64,000 bases of DNA, taken from Verrucomicrobiota bacterium. Lineage in GTDB: Bacteria; Verrucomicrobiota; Verrucomicrobiia; Limisphaerales; CANJSG01. The notes under the pieces were generated by a model. That model ran no database searches. It had not been told where the DNA came from and saw nothing but the letters and a program-made list of their open reading frames with translations. The translations under genes were made by a program, and so were the position numbers. Position 1 is the first letter of the stretch; each line of letters opens with the position of its first letter. Positions 3,144-15,263 of this stretch are shown in pieces. The stretch is from assembly GCA_038209745.1 (NCBI GenBank), contig JBBQXJ010000012.1, positions 1 through 64,000 of the forward strand, written 5' to 3'.

Positions 3144-4069
3144 AACGCCACTTCCGCGAAATCTCCGTCGCCGGCGCGCTGCTGCTGCTGCTCGGCTTCC
3201 TCGCCGTCTTTGCGCCGTCGTTCTTTCAGCCCCAGCCGCTTCTCTCGTTGCTGACCCGTGAAGCGCCGACGCTCGTCGTCGCCTGCGGCATGGCGATGGT
3301 CATCATCTGCCGCCAGATCGACATCTCCGTCGGCTCCATCTTCGCCGTGTGCAGCACCGCCGCCGGATTGCTGGCCGCCGCGAAGTGGCCGCTGGCCCTG
3401 GTCTTCCCCGCCTCCATGCTGATGGGTGCTCTGATGGGCGCGATCAACGGCGGACTCGTCGCCGGTCTTCGCCTTCCCTCCATCGTGGTCACGCTCGCCA
3501 CGCTGGTGACGTGGCGCGAGGCCTTGCGTTGGATCCGCCAGGGCGAATTCGTGAATCTCCCCGTCGATGTCCAGTGGATGGGCCTGAGCCAAGTCGGCGG
3601 ACAATGGGCGCTGATCGCAATCTCCCTCGCTGTCTTGATCGCCCTCGCCCTCGCGCTGAAGCACCTGTCGAGCGGCCGCTTCATCTACGCCGTCGGCACC
3701 GACGCCGAAGCCGCCCGTCTCGCCGGCATCCGACCGCAGCTCGTGACCTTTCTCGTCTTCGTGTTCCTCGGCGCGCTGACCGGCTTCGCCGCCATGATGA
3801 ACGTCGTCCAGTCCCCGCAGGTCGATCCCAAGTCCGGCACTGGATTGGAGCTGAAGACCATCGCCGCCGTGGTCGTGGGCGGCGTCGCCATCTCCGGCGG
3901 ACGCGGCACTCTCTGGGGCGCCTTCGTCGGCCTGCTGCTGCTCGCCTGCATCAGCCCCGCGCTGACCCATCTCCACATCGAGGCCTATTGGGAAAAGGCC
4001 ATTCAAGGCGCAATCATCCTGCTGGCCGTCGTGGCGGACGGATTGAGAAACCGGAAGGGAAATCGTTAA
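3140..4069 (+). CDS. Sugar ABC transporter permease (RhaP-like)
   Basis: GTG start overlaps the upstream stop (GTGA); IDISVGS, AARLAGI and AAVVVGG motifs. Confidence 0.9.
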   Translation: MKRHFREISVAGALLLLLGFLAVFAPSFFQPQPLLSLLTREAPTLVVACGMAMVIICRQIDISVGSIFAVCSTAAGLLAAAKWPLALVFPASMLMGALMGAINGGLVAGLRLPSIVVTLATLVTWREALRWIRQGEFVNLPVDVQWMGLSQVGGQWALIAISLAVLIALALALKHLSSGRFIYAVGTDAEAARLAGIRPQLVTFLVFVFLGALTGFAAMMNVVQSPQVDPKSGTGLELKTIAAVVVGGVAISGGRGTLWGAFVGLLLLACISPALTHLHIEAYWEKAIQGAIILLAVVADGLRNRKGNR

Positions 4070-4623
4070 TCTGCGCTGATCAATGAGAACTGAAATCTAC
4101 AAAGACGAAGGCTACAAGCTCATGGGAGCTGCGTTCGAGGTCTTCAACGACCGCGGCTACGGAATGGACGAGGAGATCTATCAGGAATGCCTCGAGATCG
4201 AGCTGGAGCTGCGCGGCATTCCGTTTCGATCCAAACAGGAACTGGCCTGCCAATATAAAGGCCGCGAGCTTCGCAAACGCTTCGTCCCGGACCTGTTCGT
4301 AAACGACGCGTTGATCGTCGAACTGAGAGCAGTCAGCCAAATTTGTCCCGAACAGGAAGCCCAACTCATGAACTACCTTAGGATCACCCGGCAACCGGTC
4401 GGCTACCTGATCAACTTCGGCCACAAGGACACGTTGGAATGGAAACGAATCGTCCTTTCCCAGTTCATCCGGCAGGACTGATTTTGAACCGCTAATCTGC
4501 GCTGATCGTCCCAATGAAAACCAAAGTCGTCATGCCCACCCGGTCTCCGGAGTCGTTCGAATTCACCGCTCCGCTCGACTTGGCAGAAAACAGATCAGCG
4601 TCGATCAGCGCAGATTAGCGGTT
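4061..4623. repeat. Direct and inverted 21-22-bp repeats bracketing the GxxExxY gene
   Basis: AACCGCTAATCTGCGCTGATCG at 4487-4508, its perfect inverse at 4602-4623, and a 19/21 direct copy at 4061-4081. Confidence 0.9.
4083..4481 (+). CDS. GxxExxY family protein (PD-(D/E)xK nuclease-like)
   Basis: GMDEEIY motif, PDLFV..IVELRAV, QLMNYL, GYLINFG. Confidence 0.9.
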   Translation: MRTEIYKDEGYKLMGAAFEVFNDRGYGMDEEIYQECLEIELELRGIPFRSKQELACQYKGRELRKRFVPDLFVNDALIVELRAVSQICPEQEAQLMNYLRITRQPVGYLINFGHKDTLEWKRIVLSQFIRQD

Positions 4624-4629
4624 TTTCAC

Positions 4630-5643
4630 ATGTTCTCATCCTCAAAACATAGCGGTTGGAAAACGGTGCTCGTCCGGCACGAGACGATCCTCTTCGTCGT
4701 CCTCGCGCTGGAATGGCTCTGCTTCAGCTCCGTCGGACCGCGTTTCGCCTCGCTCGACAACAGCTTCGACATCCTCCGGCACTCCACCGAAATCGGCCTG
4801 CTGGCGCTGGCCATGACGCCGATCATCCTGACCGGCGGCATCGATCTCTCCGTCGGTTCCCTGCTCGGCTTATGCGCCGTGGTGTTTGGAAAACTCTGGC
4901 GCGACGCCGGCATTCCCCTGCCCGCCGCCGCCGCCATCACCCTCGGCTTCGGCGCGCTGGCCGGCGGACTGAATGCCACGCTGATCACTTGGCTTCGGCT
5001 GCCACCGTTGATCGTCACGCTCGGCACCTACTCGCTCTTCCGCGGATCGGCCGAGGCGCTGACCCACGGCTTCGACACCTTCACCGACTTCCCGGCGTAT
5101 TTCCTCCACCTCGGTCAGGAACGACTGCTCGGTCTGCCGACGCAGGTCTGGGTCTTGATCCTCGTGGCTGTGGGAATCTGGCTGCTGGTTCATCGGACGA
5201 CCTACGGCCGCTCGTTCCGCGCCATTGGCTTCGCCCCGGAAGGCGCCCGCTACGCCGGACTTCCCGTCAAACGCTGCCTGGCCACGGCCTACGTGCTTGC
5301 GGGCTTCGTCGCCGCGCTGGCCGCGATCATCTACACCTCGCGCCTCGGCCAAGCGAAGGCCGACGCCGGCACCGGGTATGAACTCTTCGCCATCACGGCC
5401 GTGGTGCTCGGTGGCACCAGCATCTTTGGCGGCATCGGCACCGTTCATGGAACGCTCCTCGGAGTGGCCGCCATCGCCGTCCTGAGCAACGGCCTCGTCC
5501 ACGCCCGGGCGCCCCGCGAAGTCGCCGGCATGTTGACCGGAGCCCTCTTGATCCTGGCTCTGGTCAGCAGTGCGGTGCCGAAATGGTTCAGCCAATGGCG
5601 CGCCAAACGCCGGTCCGCCGCCGCAAAGCCCGCTTCCACCTGA
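4630..5643 (+). CDS. Sugar ABC transporter permease (RhaQ-like)
   Basis: GGIDLSVGS, ARYAGL, ITAVVLGGTSIFGG motifs; many TM segments. Confidence 0.9.
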   Translation: MFSSSKHSGWKTVLVRHETILFVVLALEWLCFSSVGPRFASLDNSFDILRHSTEIGLLALAMTPIILTGGIDLSVGSLLGLCAVVFGKLWRDAGIPLPAAAAITLGFGALAGGLNATLITWLRLPPLIVTLGTYSLFRGSAEALTHGFDTFTDFPAYFLHLGQERLLGLPTQVWVLILVAVGIWLLVHRTTYGRSFRAIGFAPEGARYAGLPVKRCLATAYVLAGFVAALAAIIYTSRLGQAKADAGTGYELFAITAVVLGGTSIFGGIGTVHGTLLGVAAIAVLSNGLVHARAPREVAGMLTGALLILALVSSAVPKWFSQWRAKRRSAAAKPAST

Positions 5644-6705: not shown

Positions 6706-6861
6706 GTCGGGGCGAGTTGAACCGCAGATCAACGCGGAAGATCGCAGATAAAAGGCAGACCAAGACCAGCGCCGAATCCGCCTCTGCCCAAGGCAACGCT
6801 CTGGGTCCATCGCCCGCCAAACAACCTAAGACCTGAAAGGGCGACCTAACCAAACCTCCTG

Positions 6862-7314
6862 ATGCCCCAGTCTCTCGCCTCGCTCCTGACGCACTTGGTC
6901 TTCAGCACCAAGCACGACGAGCCGTTGATCCACGTCGGCGTCCGGGACGAACTTTACCGCTACGCCGCGACGATCCTTCAGGATCTGGACTCACCTGCCA
7001 TCCTGATCAACTCGGTCGAGGACCACGTCCACGCGCTGTTCGCCCTGTCGAAGAACCACGCGCTGAAGGATGTAGTGGAGAAACTGAAGACCGGGACGTC
7101 CAAGTGGATCAAACGACGCGATCTGATGCTGGCGAACTTCTATTGGCAGGCCGGCTACGGCCCCTTCTCCGTCAGCCAGTCGAACGGGGCGGCGGTAACG
7201 CGCTACATCGCCGGACAAAAGGAACACCACACCAAGGTGTCGTTTCAGGACGAGGTGCGGTTGGTCTTCCGGAAGCACCGGATGGATTTCGATGAACGAT
7301 ATGTGTGGAATTGA
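6862..7314 (+). mobile_element. tnpA: IS200/IS605-family Y1 transposase (RAYT-like TnpA), no tnpB
   Basis: HLVFSTK, HUH motif DHVH, WQAGY, catalytic Y in YIAGQKEHH; flanked by inverted REP units at 6786-6850 and 7321-7410. Confidence 0.88.
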
Positions 7315-7459
7315 ACCTCGGTTAAACCGCCCTTTCACGGCTCGTCCAAAGGCAAACGTGGCGACCCAGGGCGTTGGCCTGGGCTCCATTAAGGCCGGCC
7401 CGTTGGGCCTCGCCACCGGCCGCCTCGCGGCGTGCCTCACAACCTGCCGCCTCACGGTG

Positions 7460-10211: not shown

Positions 10212-10426
10212 AATCCCGAGGAGATTGTGTCCCTCAGCCCAAGGTTGCCGCGCAGCGGCTACTCTGGGTCACGATTGGAAACGACCATCAACCCCAACCG
10301 GGTTGCGTCTTTGGTCGGTCGCCAATGGACACAACCCCTTCAAGGTTGGCTCAATCGTGGACCCCGATTCCCGGGGTAGCTCGTGCCTCGCAACCCTGGG
10401 CTAAGTGCGGGGGTCCCGTCGGGATT
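10212..10426. repeat. Inverted REP doublet (REPIN/BIME-like)
   Basis: AATCCC..AGCCCAAGGTTG..GCTACTCTGGG..CAACCCC mirrored by ..GGTTG..CCCGGGGTAGC..CAACCCTGGGCT..GGGATT. Confidence 0.7.
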
Positions 10427-10554
10427 CACCGGAAGGACGAAATTCTCCACGCCGTGTCGGCGGGCCTCTTTGCGCCTCTTGTGCTTCTTTGCGGCCATCG
10501 CCTTCCCCCTTTCTCCCCCGCTCCCCTGCACCCCGTGCTCCGCCCAATCACCCC

Positions 10555-11274
10555 ATGATCGTCTCCCTCTTCATCCCGTGCTTCGTCGACCTGATGTATC
10601 CCAAGGTGGGCATCAGCATCGTCGAAATCCTCGAACGTCTCGGCCACCGCATCGACTACCCGGAAGACCTCACCTGCTGCGGGCAGCCCGCCTTCAACTC
10701 CGGCTTTTGGGACGAAGCCCGCCAGGTCGCCCTGCCCGTCCTGCAACGACTGAAGAACTCCGAGGCCGTCGTCATCGCCTCCGGTTCCTGCGGCGCCATG
10801 CTCAAGGTCTTCTACCCGGAACTCTTCGCCGGCACCCCGCACGCCGCCGCCGCCAAGGAACTCTCGGCCAAGTGCTACGAGTTCTCCGACTTCCTCGTCA
10901 CCAAGCTGGGCGTGACCGACCTCGGCGCCGCCTTCCCGCACAAGGTCACCATCCACGACGGTTGCCACGGCCTGCGTGAACTCGGACTGAAGAAAGGCGC
11001 CCGAGACTTGCTCGGCAAAGTGCGCGGACTCGAACTCGTCGAGATGAAGGAGGCGGAAACCTGCTGCGGTTTCGGAGGCACCTTCGCGGCCAAGTTCCCC
11101 ATGATCTCCACCGCGATGGGCGAGGTGAAATGCGCCTCGGCCTTCGACACCGGAGCCGACTACATCGTGTCGAACGACTCCAGTTGCCTGATGCAGGTCC
11201 AAGGACTGTTGAGCAAACAGGGCAACGGGCTGAAGACGATCCACTTGGCGGAGATCCTGAACTCAAGGGACTGA
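10555..11274 (+). CDS. lutA: Lactate utilization protein A (CCG-domain Fe-S protein, LutA/YkgE)
   Basis: [39 protein letters not shown]. Confidence 0.9.
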
Positions 11275-11314: not shown

Positions 11315-11770
11315 ATGAGCGCGACCAACTACAACGACGGAGCACGAGACGGCTCGGACGACGCGTTTGTGCTCAATAACGCCACGCCGGCGATGGGCTA
11401 TCGCGCTCTGCAGATTTGGCAGCTCGCAAGGGACACGACCGTGACGGTCCACCGCATGACCTTGGAAAAGCAACCCCGCTTCGAGCTGCACGAAGAAGGC
11501 AGCCAAATACGCCGCTCCGCGAAGTCAGTTCGATCCAACATCGTCGAAGGCTTTGGTCGGCGGCGTTACAAGCAGGATTTCATCGAACACCTCGTCTACG
11601 CCGAAGCCTCCTGCGACGAGATCCGCGACCATCTCGACACCTTGAACGAGACCGCTTCTCTGACCGACAAGCCATTCTACGACGGGTTGGTTCAGCAAGT
11701 GAACGAACTGGCCCGAAAGATCATCCGCTTCATCACCGCCGTGGAACAAAACCACCAGAGCCCGAAATGA
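11315..11770 (+). CDS. Four helix bundle protein (23S rRNA IVP-like family)
   Basis: [36 protein letters not shown]; bracketed by inverted GATGCCG heptamer repeats. Confidence 0.9.
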
Positions 11771-11849: not shown

Positions 11850-13244
11850 ATGACCACCGAAGTCCAAGAATTCAAACAGCAGGCCACCAAGGTCGCCGCC
11901 GATCTCCGCCACCGGAAGCACATCCAGACCGCGCTCGGCAAATACGAGGTCGTCCGCGACAAGCGCAAGAACGCCTTCCAGAGCTGGAACGACGCCCGCC
12001 AGATCGCCGCCGAGACCAAGTGGGAGGCCATCAACCACCTCGACGAACACCTCGTCTCCTTCGCCGACAAGCTGGAGGCCCGCGGCACCCATGTCCATTG
12101 GGCCACCACCGCCACCCAGGCCCGCAACATCATCCTCGGCCTCATCCAGGCGAAGGGCGCCAAATCCATCATCAAGTCCAAGGCCATGACCGCCGAGGAG
12201 ATCCACCTCAACCCCGCGCTGGAGAAGGCCGGCTTCGAGGTCGTTGAATCCGATCTCGGCGAATACATCGTCCAGCTCCGCAACGAGCCGCCCTACCACA
12301 TCGTCTTCCCGGCGATGCACCTCGACCGGCACCAGATCAGCGAGCTCTTTGAGAAGCACCTCGGCAGCGCGAAGACCGACAGTCCCGAGGAACTCACCAT
12401 GATCGCCCGGCGCGCCCTCCGGGAAAAATACATCACCGCCGACGTCGGCATCACCGGGGCCAACTTCGCCATCGCCGAGACCGGCATGGTTTCCATCACG
12501 GAAAACGAGGGCAACGCCCGCCTCACCGCCGCGCTGCCCAGGACCATGATCACTCTGCTCGGCATCGAGAAGGTGCTCCCGCGCATGGCCGATCTCGCGC
12601 TTTTCCTGCCCATGCTCGCCACCGCCGGCGCCGGCCAGCAGATCACCGGCTACAACACCATGTATTCCGGCCCGCGCCAGCCCGGCGAAGCCGACGGACC
12701 CGAGGAATACCACGTCGTCCTCATCGACAACCACCGCACCGAGCTCCTGGCCGATCCCGAACAGCGCGACACCCTCCACTGCATCCGTTGCGGCGCCTGC
12801 CTGAACGTCTGCCCCATCTTCAAGAACGTCGGCGGCCACACCTACGGCACCACCTACAGCGGCCCCATCGGCTCCGTCATCACCCCGCACCTGCGCGGGT
12901 TGCAGAACTGGAAACACCTCTCCTTCTCCTCCTCCCTCTGCGGCGCCTGCACCGAAGCCTGCCCGGTGAAGATCAACCTCCACCACCACCTCCTGCACAA
13001 CCGCCGCAACTCGGTGAAACAGGAACCCGACCCGCAGGAACGCGTCGCCTTCAAGCTCTTCGCCTGGGGCATGAACAGCCCCGGTGTCTATGCCGCCGGC
13101 AAGAGCGTCGCCCGCTGGCTCGCCCCGCTGCACAAGCTGGTCATGGGAACCTTCCTCGACCCCGCCAAATCCTGGACCAAGACCCGCGACCTCCCGCCCA
13201 TCGCCGAGACGACCTTCAAGGAATATTGGAAGAACCGGCAGTGA
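11850..13244 (+). CDS. lutB: Lactate utilization protein B (LutB/YkgF)
   Basis: KSKAMTAEEI, ESDLGEYIVQL, ENEGN, CIRCGACLNVCP, SSLCGACTEACPVKI. Confidence 0.92.
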   Translation: MTTEVQEFKQQATKVAADLRHRKHIQTALGKYEVVRDKRKNAFQSWNDARQIAAETKWEAINHLDEHLVSFADKLEARGTHVHWATTATQARNIILGLIQAKGAKSIIKSKAMTAEEIHLNPALEKAGFEVVESDLGEYIVQLRNEPPYHIVFPAMHLDRHQISELFEKHLGSAKTDSPEELTMIARRALREKYITADVGITGANFAIAETGMVSITENEGNARLTAALPRTMITLLGIEKVLPRMADLALFLPMLATAGAGQQITGYNTMYSGPRQPGEADGPEEYHVVLIDNHRTELLADPEQRDTLHCIRCGACLNVCPIFKNVGGHTYGTTYSGPIGSVITPHLRGLQNWKHLSFSSSLCGACTEACPVKINLHHHLLHNRRNSVKQEPDPQERVAFKLFAWGMNSPGVYAAGKSVARWLAPLHKLVMGTFLDPAKSWTKTRDLPPIAETTFKEYWKNRQ

Positions 13245-13294
13245 CCGTGGGGTAGGATTGCAGCCCAGCCGCCCAACTGATTTCTTAACCACAG

Positions 13295-13699
13295 ATGAAC
13301 ACGGATGGACACAGATCAGCCAAGCTTCGCCTGCTTGGGGATTATCGCGGCAACCCGGCTGAACTGTTCGATGGTTTTGAGCCTGATCAGCTACCGTTCA
13401 ATCCAGATGCCTTTGGAATAACCGGCTATGAAACGGTTGATTTGGTGAAGAGCGCATTGTCGGCTCCGCCTCCGGGTTCTTCCGAAAAGGAACTTCTTGA
13501 TACGATCTGTTCGTCTGTTTCACCCAGGGTCCAAGTTTGGAACAAGTCAGCCGGATGCATCGAATCGCGTTCCGGCTACTACGCATTCTCGGCTTCACAA
13601 AGCGACTCGGGACGACTCGCCATCTTGTATTCGTTCTTCGAGGTCTCACCGATGAGGTACCACGCCTACCTGCACGCCATTCTTCAGATCGATTTTTGA
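13295..13699 (+). CDS. Hypothetical protein, atypical composition; ATG lies inside the flanking repeat
   Basis: 134-codon open frame, visibly lower GC than the operon; no recognisable family. Confidence 0.45.
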   Translation: MNTDGHRSAKLRLLGDYRGNPAELFDGFEPDQLPFNPDAFGITGYETVDLVKSALSAPPPGSSEKELLDTICSSVSPRVQVWNKSAGCIESRSGYYAFSASQSDSGRLAILYSFFEVSPMRYHAYLHAILQIDF

Positions 13700-13748
13700 T
13701 GAATCGCCTGAGAGAAACGTAATCGAACTGACTTCATCTCAACCGCAC

Positions 13749-14096
13749 ATGAACACCTTCAACGAAACCTTCGGCTTCATCTTCGCCTTGTGCGCCGGAG
13801 TCATGATCTTGGCCGTCTTCTTCACGGCTCTTGGCTATCTCAAGAGAGGGGTTCGTGGTCCTGGGGTGCTGAAGATGAAGGGCTTTGTCCGGGAGGGTAA
13901 GCGGATCAACGTCCATCTGGCTGGCGGCCGCACCTTGGAAAACTTTCAGTTCGTCGGCTTCACCGAGCAGAACTCAGCCAAAGGAGTGATCCCCTATCAG
14001 TTGGCCAGCATGGCCGTCTTCGAGTGCGAAACGGGATCGAGAGCCATGGTCCGAGCCGATTCGATCCGTATGATCGAGGAAATAGACGCCACCTAA
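13749..14096 (+). CDS. Hypothetical protein with N-terminal TM helix
   Basis: 115 aa; FGFIFALCAGVMILAVFFTALGYL hydrophobic segment followed by a small soluble domain. Confidence 0.65.
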   Translation: MNTFNETFGFIFALCAGVMILAVFFTALGYLKRGVRGPGVLKMKGFVREGKRINVHLAGGRTLENFQFVGFTEQNSAKGVIPYQLASMAVFECETGSRAMVRADSIRMIEEIDAT

Positions 14097-14194
14097 TCGC
14101 TCCGCCTTGTTCCCTATCTGTGTGAATCTGTGTCCATCTGTGGTTGTCCTCTTCCCCCATGACTGAACGCGCTTCAACGCCCCAACCCAAACCA

Positions 14195-14405
14195 GCGGCA
14201 GCCATTAGCTGGAGGTCGAGGAGCGCGTTGCGCGACGACACCTCCGATTCGCCGCCCAAACATTCACGACCCCATCGGGATCGCAGCAGGCCGCCAACCT
14301 CCAATTCCGCTGGCATCCTTTCCGGATGCGTCCCGTGGCTCCGCCCGGTCCGGGCGTGTCGCTCCGCTCAACCCCCGGCCAATCGCTGTCAGCCTTCCAG
14401 GCTGA
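14195..14405. repeat. Degenerate inverted REP doublet
   Basis: GCAGCCATTAGCTGGAGGTCGAGGAGCG..CGACACCTCCG mirrored by CGGGCGTGTCGCTCCGCTCAACCCCCGGCCAATCGCTG; short palindromes GCATCCTTTCCGGATGC and CAGCCTTCCAGGCTG. Confidence 0.6.
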
Positions 14406-14555
14406 AGACAGACCGATCCTTCGTCGTTTCCCATCTGTGTGAATCTGTGTCCATCTGTGGTTTCTCCACTTCCCCGACTGAACGCGTAGCGACTCCCGCT
14501 ACCTTTCCCCGTCTGCGTCCTTCCGCATTTTCCGCGGTTAACTCCCCCTTCTCCC

Positions 14556-15263
14556 ATGACTGAACGCGAAAAAATCCTCGGCCGCATCCGCGAAGCCCTG
14601 ACCCTCTCCGCCCCGCCTCCCGGCGAACACGGACCGGACACCGACGCCCACGGCGGGCACCCGATCCAATTCGCCCCGCGTGCCGCCGCCACCCACGCCC
14701 GCGAGTGGTTGCCCAAGGCCGCGGAGACCTTCGAGGCGCAGGTCGAGCAGTTCCGCGCCTGCTCGGACGATCTCAAGACCGAGTTCATCGTCGCCGATTC
14801 GTTGGCCGACTTGCCCAAGATCCTCGGCGATCTCCGCCAACGCGAAGGCTGGAAGGGAGCCGCCGCGCACAAGGGCGAATTGACCGACGCCGCCGTCCAC
14901 GCCTTGGGCCTGCCCACGCTGACCGTCGACGGCGGCTACGACGTCCACGCGCTGGAGCGTTGCGACGTCGGCATCACCGAATGCGACGCGCTCGTGGCCC
15001 AGACCGGCACGCTCGTCGTCAACTCCCGCACCTCCGGCGGACGCGCCCTGTCCATTCTGCCGCCGCACCACCTGGTCATCGCCCGGCGCGACCAGCTCAT
15101 GGCCGATCTCCCCGCCGCCTTCGAGGCCATCCAGGCCAAATACGCGCCGGACTTTCCCAGCATGATCTCCCTCGTCACCGGCCCCAGCCGCACCGGCGAC
15201 ATCGAGCGCATCCTCGTCCTCGGCGCCCACGGCCCGAAGAAACTGACCGTCGTGCTGGTCTGA
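14556..15263 (+). CDS. lutC: Lactate utilization protein C (LUD domain, LutC/YkgG)
   Basis: VAQTGTL, GRALSILPPHH, VTGPSRTGDIERILVLGAHGP. Confidence 0.9.
   Translation: MTEREKILGRIREALTLSAPPPGEHGPDTDAHGGHPIQFAPRAAATHAREWLPKAAETFEAQVEQFRACSDDLKTEFIVADSLADLPKILGDLRQREGWKGAAAHKGELTDAAVHALGLPTLTVDGGYDVHALERCDVGITECDALVAQTGTLVVNSRTSGGRALSILPPHHLVIARRDQLMADLPAAFEAIQAKYAPDFPSMISLVTGPSRTGDIERILVLGAHGPKKLTVVLV

Follow-up and report, generated by a model that had tools for sequence, protein, structure and literature searches.

Several kinds of mobile DNA are known to settle at or between genes. Integrative elements and prophages rebuild the 3' end of a tRNA gene by means of their att core. The doublets of repetitive extragenic palindromes (REP/REPIN) go together with a RAYT gene, which encodes a Y1 transposase, and carry a palindrome headed by GTAG, and free-standing homing endonuclease genes sit between the conserved genes of phages. 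The subject of this text is the start of the gene lutC in a Verrucomicrobiota bacterium, in a stretch of 64,000 nucleotides (nt) of contig JBBQXJ010000012.1 (the window), where the first bases of the gene occur three times, each time behind an arm of a dispersed repeat family. The closest published parallel comes from fungal mitochondria, where, according to the sections of the source available to us, mobile endonuclease open reading frames (mORFs) of Allomyces (atp6) and Glomus (atp6, atp9, cox2, nad3) bring in a foreign C-terminal gene piece when they insert, the native C-terminus then persisting as a duplicate (PMC3630166).

As far as those sections go, the mORFs and the lutC locus are alike in that mobile DNA linked to an endonuclease lies in a gene end, brings a foreign end with it, keeps the gene whole and leaves the native end duplicated nearby. 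They differ in that at lutC it is the 5' end that appears replaced, only 13 coding nt are concerned, the setting is a bacterial operon, and the replacement appears twice at the same base. The family linked to the lutC repeats is PD-(D/E)XK (PF13366), not LAGLIDADG or GIY-YIG, and the lutC inserts (14172-14475 and 14487-14555) hold no nuclease open reading frame (ORF) and are non-autonomous, so that the likeness is one of logic and not of membership.

Coordinates without a contig label are those of the window. The genome under study is called G000, its congeners G001 to G006 and three cyanobacterial genomes G041 to G043, and C with a number denotes a contig of G000. Units 1, 2 and 3 (H1, H2 and H3) each comprise an arm, a leader and a start copy. 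The locus is laid out as follows.

11850 to 13244, forward: lutB (LUD, 4Fe-4S and LutB_C domains; Pfam).
13287 to 13317, reverse: left arm of A type (AACCACAGATGAACACGGATGGACACAGATC), pairing as an inverted repeat with the downstream right arms.
13295 to 14096, forward: cargo of two ORFs, of 134 amino acids (13295-13699) and 115 amino acids (13749-14096), with no family match.
14115 to 14145, forward: right arm A, copy 1 (arm search).
14146 to 14158, forward: C/T-rich leader 1 (GTCCTCTTCCCCC; reading and unit comparison).
14159 to 14171, forward: start copy 1 (ATGACTGAACGCG), stranded, with orthologous copies ATGACTGAACGCC in G001 and ATGATTGAACGCG in G003.
14183 to 14405, forward: repeat X, palindromic and dispersed, about 220 nt, resembling a miniature inverted-repeat transposable element (MITE; BLAST and alignment of copies).
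14432 to 14462, forward: right arm A, copy 2 (arm search).
14463 to 14475, forward: C/T-rich leader 2 (TCTCCACTTCCCC; reading and unit comparison).
14476 to 14486, forward: start copy 2 (GACTGAACGCG), stranded, the AT of its ATG lost, homologous together with its upstream context to the working start unit of G005.
14487 to 14503, forward: probable small hairpin (TAGCGACTCCCGCTACC), from reading.
14511 to 14539, forward: right arm of B type (GTCTGCGTCC TTCCGCATTT TCCGCGGTT), common to G000, G001, G003 and G004, with family members in inverted pairs elsewhere.
14540 to 14555, forward: C/T-rich leader 3 (AACTCCCCCTTCTCCC; reading).
14556 to 15263, forward: lutC (LUD domain; Pfam), live start ATGACTGAACGCG, protein beginning MTER.

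The repeats that the preliminary description of the window had reported are exact. The 16-mer CCCATGACTGAACGCG stands at both 14156-14171 and 14553-14568, the 11-mer GACTGAACGCG is found again at 14476-14486, where the ATG has lost its AT, and the 30-mer ATCTGTGTGAATCTGTGTCCATCTGTGGTT is identical at 14116-14145 and 14433-14462, ahead of copies 1 and 2. The different arm GTCTGCGTCCTTCCGCATTTTCCGCGGTT that it had placed before the live start, at 14511-14539, is real as well and belongs to the repeat's B subfamily (TCTGCG/TCCGCG), which is found dispersed over the genome. Where 3.3 occurrences of GACTGAACGCG would be expected in the 4.58-Mb genome, there are six, three of them within 400 nt at lutC. 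Among 2000 random positions, a repeat of the 40-nt flank within 1.2 kb reached at least 16 nt at one position and at least 12 nt at 27. All three copies share their last base, nt 13 of lutC, behind which the DNA is unrelated (CTTCAAC..., TAGCGAC... and AAAAAAT...), and every arm is separated from its start copy by a C/T-rich leader of 13, 13 and 16 nt, respectively.

The LutC N-terminus MTER[ED]KILGRIREAL is common to six congeners and, with small changes, is found in two outgroups, so that the start sequence is lutC's own. The feature is genuine and has been inherited. In G001 and G003, which were assembled separately, repeat X likewise comes after arm, leader and ATGACTGAACGCC or ATGATTGAACGCG in the same position, and unit 1 with X is collinear between G000 and G001 (79.7% over 301 nt). 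The assembly was checked by comparing Logan contigs from four sediment-metagenome runs (X1 to X4, X1 containing 83% of the sampled words) with positions 13000-15000. A contig of 344 nt from X1 equals 14116-14459 with 0 differences, and one of 405 nt from X4, belonging to a variant strain (19 differences, 1 gap), spans 14054-14459 and thereby the cargo end, arm 1, start copy 1, X and arm 2. Contigs from X2, X3 and X4 lead from 14433 or 14435 through copy 2 and the B arm into lutC. Logan contigs, like any k-mer assembly, are bound to end at the identical 30-mers, and for the succession of pieces across the arms the evidence is therefore the assembly itself together with the collinear congeners.

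The units fall into two groups by sequence. The A group contains units 1 and 2 of G000, unit 1 of G001 and of G003, and the working units of G005 and G006, which are mostly 80-88% alike, the truncated unit 1 of G003 standing apart at 59-73%. The B group is made of the working units of G000, G001, G003 and G004 (78-91% alike), and the likeness between A-group and B-group units is 52-70%. Units 1 and 2 of G000 form a 63-nt direct repeat, 317 nt apart and 85% alike, and unit 2 is 83% alike to the G005 unit; unit 3 shares the identical 13-mer with units 1 and 2 and differs from them in arm and leader (65%). The 45 nt before arm 2, consisting of the X end and a spacer, were compared with the 45 nt before the working arm of G005 and gave a score of 12, which none of 1000 shuffles attained. 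The other nine pairs of upstream contexts scored at most 1.5, and the match between the contexts of units 2 and 1 was equalled by 81 of 1000 shuffles. As its upstream context matches, unit 2 is the homologue of the start that still works in G005.

The preliminary description had read the copies as serial insertions after nt 13 of lutC, each restoring the 5' end of the gene in the manner of integrative elements. Displacement at one position is borne out: the three copies end at lutC nt 13, copy 1 with X is inherited in G000, G001 and G003, the working start of G005 finds its positional homologue in copy 2 and the 45 nt upstream of it, and the live start of G000 lies behind a B arm found in four species. 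This descriptive core of a serial start displacement probably holds. A local tree of the lutB end and lutC gives (G005,G006), (G001,G004), G000 and G003 as a polytomy, which is compatible with a single origin of the B unit on the branch that may separate G005 and G006 from the others.

The surroundings of lutC differ within and outside the genus. In relatives outside it the two genes are closely coupled, the lutB stop abutting or overlapping the lutC start: the lutB match ends 3-15 nt from the lutC start in eight of the ten loci holding both genes, and in the remaining two the lutB alignment ends a few residues short. Within the genus, the spacer measures 678-1311 nt and its cargo is different in each of six species. 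In G000 lutB is not adjacent to lutC, the 1311-nt spacer including an 859-bp arm-bounded insert with two ORFs. From lutB to lutC the spacers read as follows.

G000: L arm, two ORFs, H1, X, H2, hairpin, H3/lutC.
G001: ORF, H1, X, palindrome P2, H3/lutC.
G003: ORF, partial arm/H1, truncated X, palindrome P1, H3/lutC.
G004: ORF, X, P2, H3/lutC.
G005: L arm, ORF, remnant of the X end, spacer, A unit/lutC.
G006: ORF, P1, A unit/lutC.
G002: lutC at another place, without arms.

The small hairpin of G000 (14487-14503) would occupy the position of a larger palindromic repeat in G001 and G004, which likewise ends in ...CTACCTT. The sequence GTGACCG at the lutB stop, which had been taken for a possible relic of an original coupled start, is present, but as a relic it cannot be told from a chance match: when the lutB end was aligned locally with the lutC start, the scores stayed within those of shuffled sequences in all six genomes, the best being G004 (269 of 2000 shuffles) and G006 (427 of 2000), and the candidate was dropped. 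Contigs from runs X2 to X4 also join 13242 to 13749 and 13250 to 14128, the joined sides being 19-59 nt long, so that these sediments may also contain strains in which the first cargo ORF, or all of the cargo, is missing.

The arms of the lutC spacer (13287 on the reverse strand; 14115, 14432 and 14511 on the forward strand) are members of a decamer-arm family that is linked to GxxExxY genes. An arm consists of three hexamers at exactly 10-nt spacing with a GGTT end, (A)TCTGTG NNN(A)TCTGTG NNN(A)TCTGTGGTT. Counting those with at least 18 of 21 fixed positions matching, G000 holds 61 arms (31 forward, 30 reverse) against 1 in the reversed-genome control. They form 23 inverted pairs, 86-859 bp in total length, whose GGTT ends point outward, and a target-site duplication is absent from all 23 pairs. 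Subfamilies are distinguished by the hexamer, namely TCTGTG (A), TCTGCG/TCCGCG (B, including the third lutC arm), TCAGCG and TTCGTG, and the hexamers within one arm are mostly of one type. The outward flanks of the arms are mostly non-homologous to one another, and on a crude reading based on ORFs the arms sit a few nt past stop codons and, in several cases, 12-13 nt ahead of an ATG. At C55:10026-10519, a left A arm is followed by nested repeats, including an X copy, and by a right B arm ahead of a gene start. Another cargo cassette is seen at C26:15367-15745, where an arm pair encloses a low-GC (51%) ORF of 95 codons.

The family is widespread. A scan for TCTGTGN4TCTGTGN4TCTGTGGTT over one genome per prokaryote species found at least 126 loci against about 0.3 expected by arithmetic, and among the loci listed near-identical arms occur in Cyanobacteria, Acidobacteriota, Planctomycetota, Verrucomicrobiota, NC10, Chloroflexota and others. 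The three cyanobacterial genomes (G041 to G043) hold 233, 132 and 84 arms, mostly solitary and not in close pairs, against 0 in the controls. Rfam over 13000-14800 returned no family, the sole match being a snoRNA model at E 0.39. The palindrome occurs in four records of a plasmid collection, three of them unannotated there and one marked only as a hypothetical protein. In the literature, arm strings of 7-10 nt were met only in unrelated papers and two of 17-18 nt in none. The inverted pairing, the cargo and the link to a nuclease spoke against an identity as DnaA box or response-regulator operator, which was dropped.

All three matches to TIGR04256 in G000 are PF13366 PD-(D/E)XK proteins, and all three of these GxxExxY genes are flanked by arms, each by its own hexamer type.

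C32:44671-45009, reverse: GxxExxY gene between two 143-bp A-type doublets that are 97% alike (C32:44506-45242).
4083 to 4481 of the window: GxxExxY gene with TCAGCG-type arms.
C89:17339-17680: GxxExxY gene with TTCGTG-type arms.

The C32 gene with its doublets is likely an autonomous member of the A type; among the congeners, only G005 has a match running through this gene. In the window (4060-4630), the GxxExxY gene separates two ABC permease genes and has CG[TC]TAATCTGCGCTGATC on both sides, and 4060-4082 and 4483-4528 make up a candidate second case of an arm with a gene-start repeat, in which the arm part of 15-19 nt is clear and the likeness in ATGA.AAC..AA.TC (11 of 15) was noticed post hoc. 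In the cyanobacterium G043, the flanks of all three GxxExxY genes show two to three imperfect inverted decamer units by eye, where a regular expression for exact triples found none. Searches by family name and by sequence strings brought up no published description of the association between arms and GxxExxY genes, and the papers naming the family, in the parts available, are not about repeats. The repeat family behind the footprint thus seems undescribed in print.

A Y1_Tnp (PF01797) gene also lies in the window, with its match at 6880-7218 and a reading of about 6863-7315, just inside a B-type left arm (6720-6748); it has an inverted repeat of its own, of different sequence (CCAAGGCAACGCTCTGGGTC / GACCCAGGGCGTTGGCCTGG). 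G000 has four Y1_Tnp matches, and it is GxxExxY and not Y1_Tnp that A-type arms flank. The arm family is like REP/REPIN in its dispersed intergenic inverted-repeat doublets, in the few full-length members around a small nuclease-type gene, and in subfamilies matched to gene copies. It differs in having a PD-(D/E)XK nuclease, three decamer units, near-identity across phyla and cargo ORFs in its pairs.

Repeat X is a separate dispersed sequence, with 15 BLAST matches in G000, of which 11 copies were aligned. Copies lie on C63, C59, C75, C14, C11, C55 and C4, with ends that are hairpins of the form CAACCCGAAGGGTTG, and some have an open frame reading ...AAISRGLRSA...RCAQPPANGCQP.... The start sequence was considered as part of X and this was rejected, as it is absent ahead of all ten other aligned copies.

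Comparison of close relatives shows how the arms behave at other operon junctions of the genus. Two of them are occupied in some species and empty in others.

Operon spacer on C27 (C27:8286-8374; orthologous loci L301-L306), empty: stop-to-start distance of 13-14 nt in G003, G004 and G006.
The same spacer, filled: an 89-bp pair in G000; a 104-bp pair with another core in G005; a left arm with about 480 nt of cargo in G001; a single B arm in G002.
ABC-permease junction, empty: genes overlapping (GTGA) in G001, G003 and G005; 6 nt apart in G002.
ABC-permease junction, filled: a 560-nt insert with a GxxExxY gene and a doublet in G000; another insert of about 600 nt in G006.

At C27 the element stands 6 nt past the stop and 8-10 nt before the start without a duplicated target. 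With three empty sites and four different inserts among the seven genomes, there has been repeated gain, or precise loss, at one point. The C/T-rich leader had been considered as borne by the arm, and this was rejected because the empty C27 site already has a C/T-rich stretch before its ATG; over the whole genome, a C/T run of at least 9 is found at only 3% of 2269 ORF starts. At the permease junction of G000, the upstream gene has a new stop, a TAA inside an arm-like copy. The flanks of an arm element on C39 lie on separate contigs in most congeners. Therefore, the arm family wedges into operon junctions, comes and goes among close relatives, may carry cargo, and normally makes no duplication. 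This resembles the homing endonuclease genes of phages, with presence and absence and differing cargo at one intergenic point, clean junctions and no target duplication; it differs in that most arm copies are gene-less pairs, and homing is invoked here by analogy only.

Taken together, two successive displacements of the lutC start, with break-and-copy repair as their cause, is the reading that we favour, at a probability of about 0.5. The lutB-lutC junction of the genus would have served as a landing pad for arm elements, and a double-strand break would form at a fixed place beside the A arm, about 26 nt outside it. Both displaced starts belong to A units, and both break points lie 26 nt from GGTT when the lost AT of unit 2 is counted. 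The lutC-side end would then invade another spacer allele, on a sister or a foreign chromosome, and copy from it the start, the leader, the arm and some of the spacer. The opposite end would be joined by end-joining, simply because the spacer alleles have no homology on that side. Where homology exists at both sides, a clean swap of spacer alleles would result, and such swaps would account for cargo that differs from species to species. G000 has the cognate A-type nuclease gene (C32), whose product might be what makes the break; the lutB-lutC spacer itself contains no GxxExxY gene.

The history would run in three steps. At the outset start 1 (H1) would be live. A piece composed of 11 nt, X, a spacer, an A arm, a leader and the 13 nt would then arrive and make start 2 live; G005 would represent the state after this step, H1 and most of X having since been lost through cargo turnover. 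Finally, a piece with the hairpin or P2, a B arm, a leader and the 13 nt would arrive and make start 3 live, as in G000, G001, G003 and G004. Each event would leave the former start stranded upstream and the gene whole.

Several points weigh against this account. The preliminary description had named a lack of further start duplications near these repeats as a refutation of its reading, and the outcome speaks against a general property: none of the 59 other arms in G000 has a flank repeat of at least 12 nt, which makes the phenomenon unique to this locus in the genome. Direct repeats within 1.5 kb that contain an arm number only three genome-wide, namely the lutC locus, the C32 doublets and C56. 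On both counts, the phenomenon is locus-specific here, which may be tied to the ancestral absence of a lutB-lutC spacer, a cut at fixed distance then landing in the gene. G005 keeps an A unit at lutC despite carrying the A-type nuclease locus. The publications on the GxxExxY family, in the parts available, gave no function for it, and the cleavage proposed here is putative. Unit 2 is absent from G001, G003 and G004, so that a later loss is required, and the polytomy fits more than one order of events, and either shared descent or an exchange of alleles between lineages. The leaders are low-complexity C/T runs for which homology is hard to judge. A donor allele with a B unit only was not found among the six congeners. 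A metagenome scan for further alleles with GGTTN{10,20}GACTGAACGC was discarded, the pattern being too weak: the single locus with an adjoining arm-like hexamer among 119 is what chance gives.

Among the other explanations, a purely local duplication without foreign DNA is unlikely but the most probable. Slippage or unequal crossing-over between the arms, followed by drift, MITE insertions and conversion of an arm to the B type, would account for the direct repeat of units 1 and 2, and repeated, palindromic arms favour misalignment; single elements that combine A and B arms indicate that arm types may interconvert. However, tandem copying would include the neighbours, and the flanking sequences on either side of the units are unrelated. 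Unit 2 resembles unit 1 of its own genome no more closely than it does the G005 unit, its context matches that of G005 and not that of unit 1, and the arm and leader of unit 3 depart from those of units 1 and 2 while the 13-mer stays identical.

Site-specific integration must be given a still smaller chance. Here, small elements with an attP-like copy of the lutC start would duplicate a core at their junctions, as islands do when they restore tRNA 3' ends, and direct copies of the same 11-13 nt do flank the inserted pieces (14159, 14476 and 14556), with an identical break point in both events. The likeness to tRNA-restoring elements is in the short piece of the target gene at both junctions and the functional gene. 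The lutC locus differs from them in having no integrase or defined ends, in affecting the 5' end of a protein gene, and in that no other copy of an element was found. The ORFs 13295-13699, 13749-14096 and 14144-14563 match no Pfam family, hence there is no recombinase in 13245-14555, and no integron integrase exceeds the cut-off in the genome (best 95.6 bits vs 265). The two inserted pieces have no common left end, GACTGAACGCG stands beside no other arm of the genome, and arm elements elsewhere lie between stop and start without a duplicated core. On these grounds, the part of the preliminary description that likened the locus to integrative elements is not supported. An integron cassette array (attC) was likewise rejected, as no intI passes the cut-off and the arms are conserved in sequence across phyla, where attC is conserved in structure; by eye only, the arm flanks loosely resemble RYYYAAC/GTTRRRY.

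It is very improbable that X and the hairpin-type repeat inserted in the manner of transposons, leaving target-site duplications of unusual length. Such insertion would fit the direct repeats around X (63 nt) and around the piece with the hairpin and B arm (11-20 nt). Yet in none of the seven other X copies do the two 90-nt flanks have more than 8 nt in common, all 23 arm pairs and the filled C27 sites are free of target duplication, and the second insert ends in the other arm type, so the arm is not part of a duplicated target. Finally, an assembly artefact in a repeat-rich metagenome bin, which the identical 30-mer arms and the Logan contigs ending at them might invite, has next to no chance, given single contigs from arm 1 to arm 2 (X1 with 0 differences, X4 from a variant strain) and from arm 2 to lutC (X2, X3, X4) and the presence, in two independently assembled species (G001, G003), of a stranded start with X behind it in this position.

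The stranded start 1 may have kept a role of its own. An ORF that begins there is open through the whole insert in all four insert-bearing species, though the inserts differ.

14159 to 14563, forward, G000: 134 codons, crossing X, arm 2, copy 2 and the B arm; TGA 5 nt inside lutC.
G003: 122 codons; stop at the G000 position.
G001: 155 codons; TAA within GGTTAAC, 16 nt before the ATG.
G004: 150 codons, beginning at an ATG just before X; stop at the G001 position.

It is the only stop-free frame of the six in each of the four species. For the four species, the frame stayed open in 296, 104, 473 and 92 of 2000 dinucleotide shuffles. As the species share X by descent and three of seven X copies elsewhere are open in that frame, the joint odds are perhaps 1 in 100, and the conserved open frame is suggestive. 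A Shine-Dalgarno signal is nearly absent from this genome (13% of 2269 ORF starts). Termination-reinitiation from the old start 1 to the live lutC start would be a reasonable function for the stranded copy: ribosomes would load at the old start, translate the insert as a junk ORF and hand over to lutC, which would explain why the frame is kept open in four species.

Two further features of the region are recorded here, together with repeats elsewhere in the genome.

10405 to 11274: lutA (Pfam search).
11315 to 11770: 23S_rRNA_IVP-family gene (Pfam search).

The latter, of the four-helix-bundle kind, is another small gene lodged within the lut operon, between lutA and lutB, with no arms detected next to it. 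At C54:271-639 and C54:32155-32496 there are long tandem arrays whose periods are 15 nt and 21 nt, the 21-nt unit being GGTTAAAGCGAACAACGCCCC.

The footprint at lutC is a new variant of the known kinds of gene-end duplication, at a hot spot made by a nuclease-linked repeat family. A fuller proposal joins the parts: the nuclease would cut about 26 nt outside its arm, the cut would fall inside the downstream gene where the operon junction has no spacer, repair would import an allele with the gene start, and the stranded start 1 would still load ribosomes that reinitiate at lutC. As a whole, this is tentative and rather doubtful. Should the reading fail, the locus would be what ordinary illegitimate recombination leaves behind in a repeat-rich spacer, a scar specific to this place. 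If the proposal is true, it would be a bacterial counterpart of endonuclease-driven gene-end replacement, acting at 5' ends, repeatable, and leaving a stack of dated former starts. It would also yield a testable prediction for an uncharacterised nuclease family, namely the cut site relative to the arm, and would be a rare record of selfish intergenic elements that remodel an operon junction without killing the downstream gene. The locus also provides a natural setting in which to test whether translation is coupled across inserted DNA, the bacterium being one that mostly lacks ribosome-binding sites.

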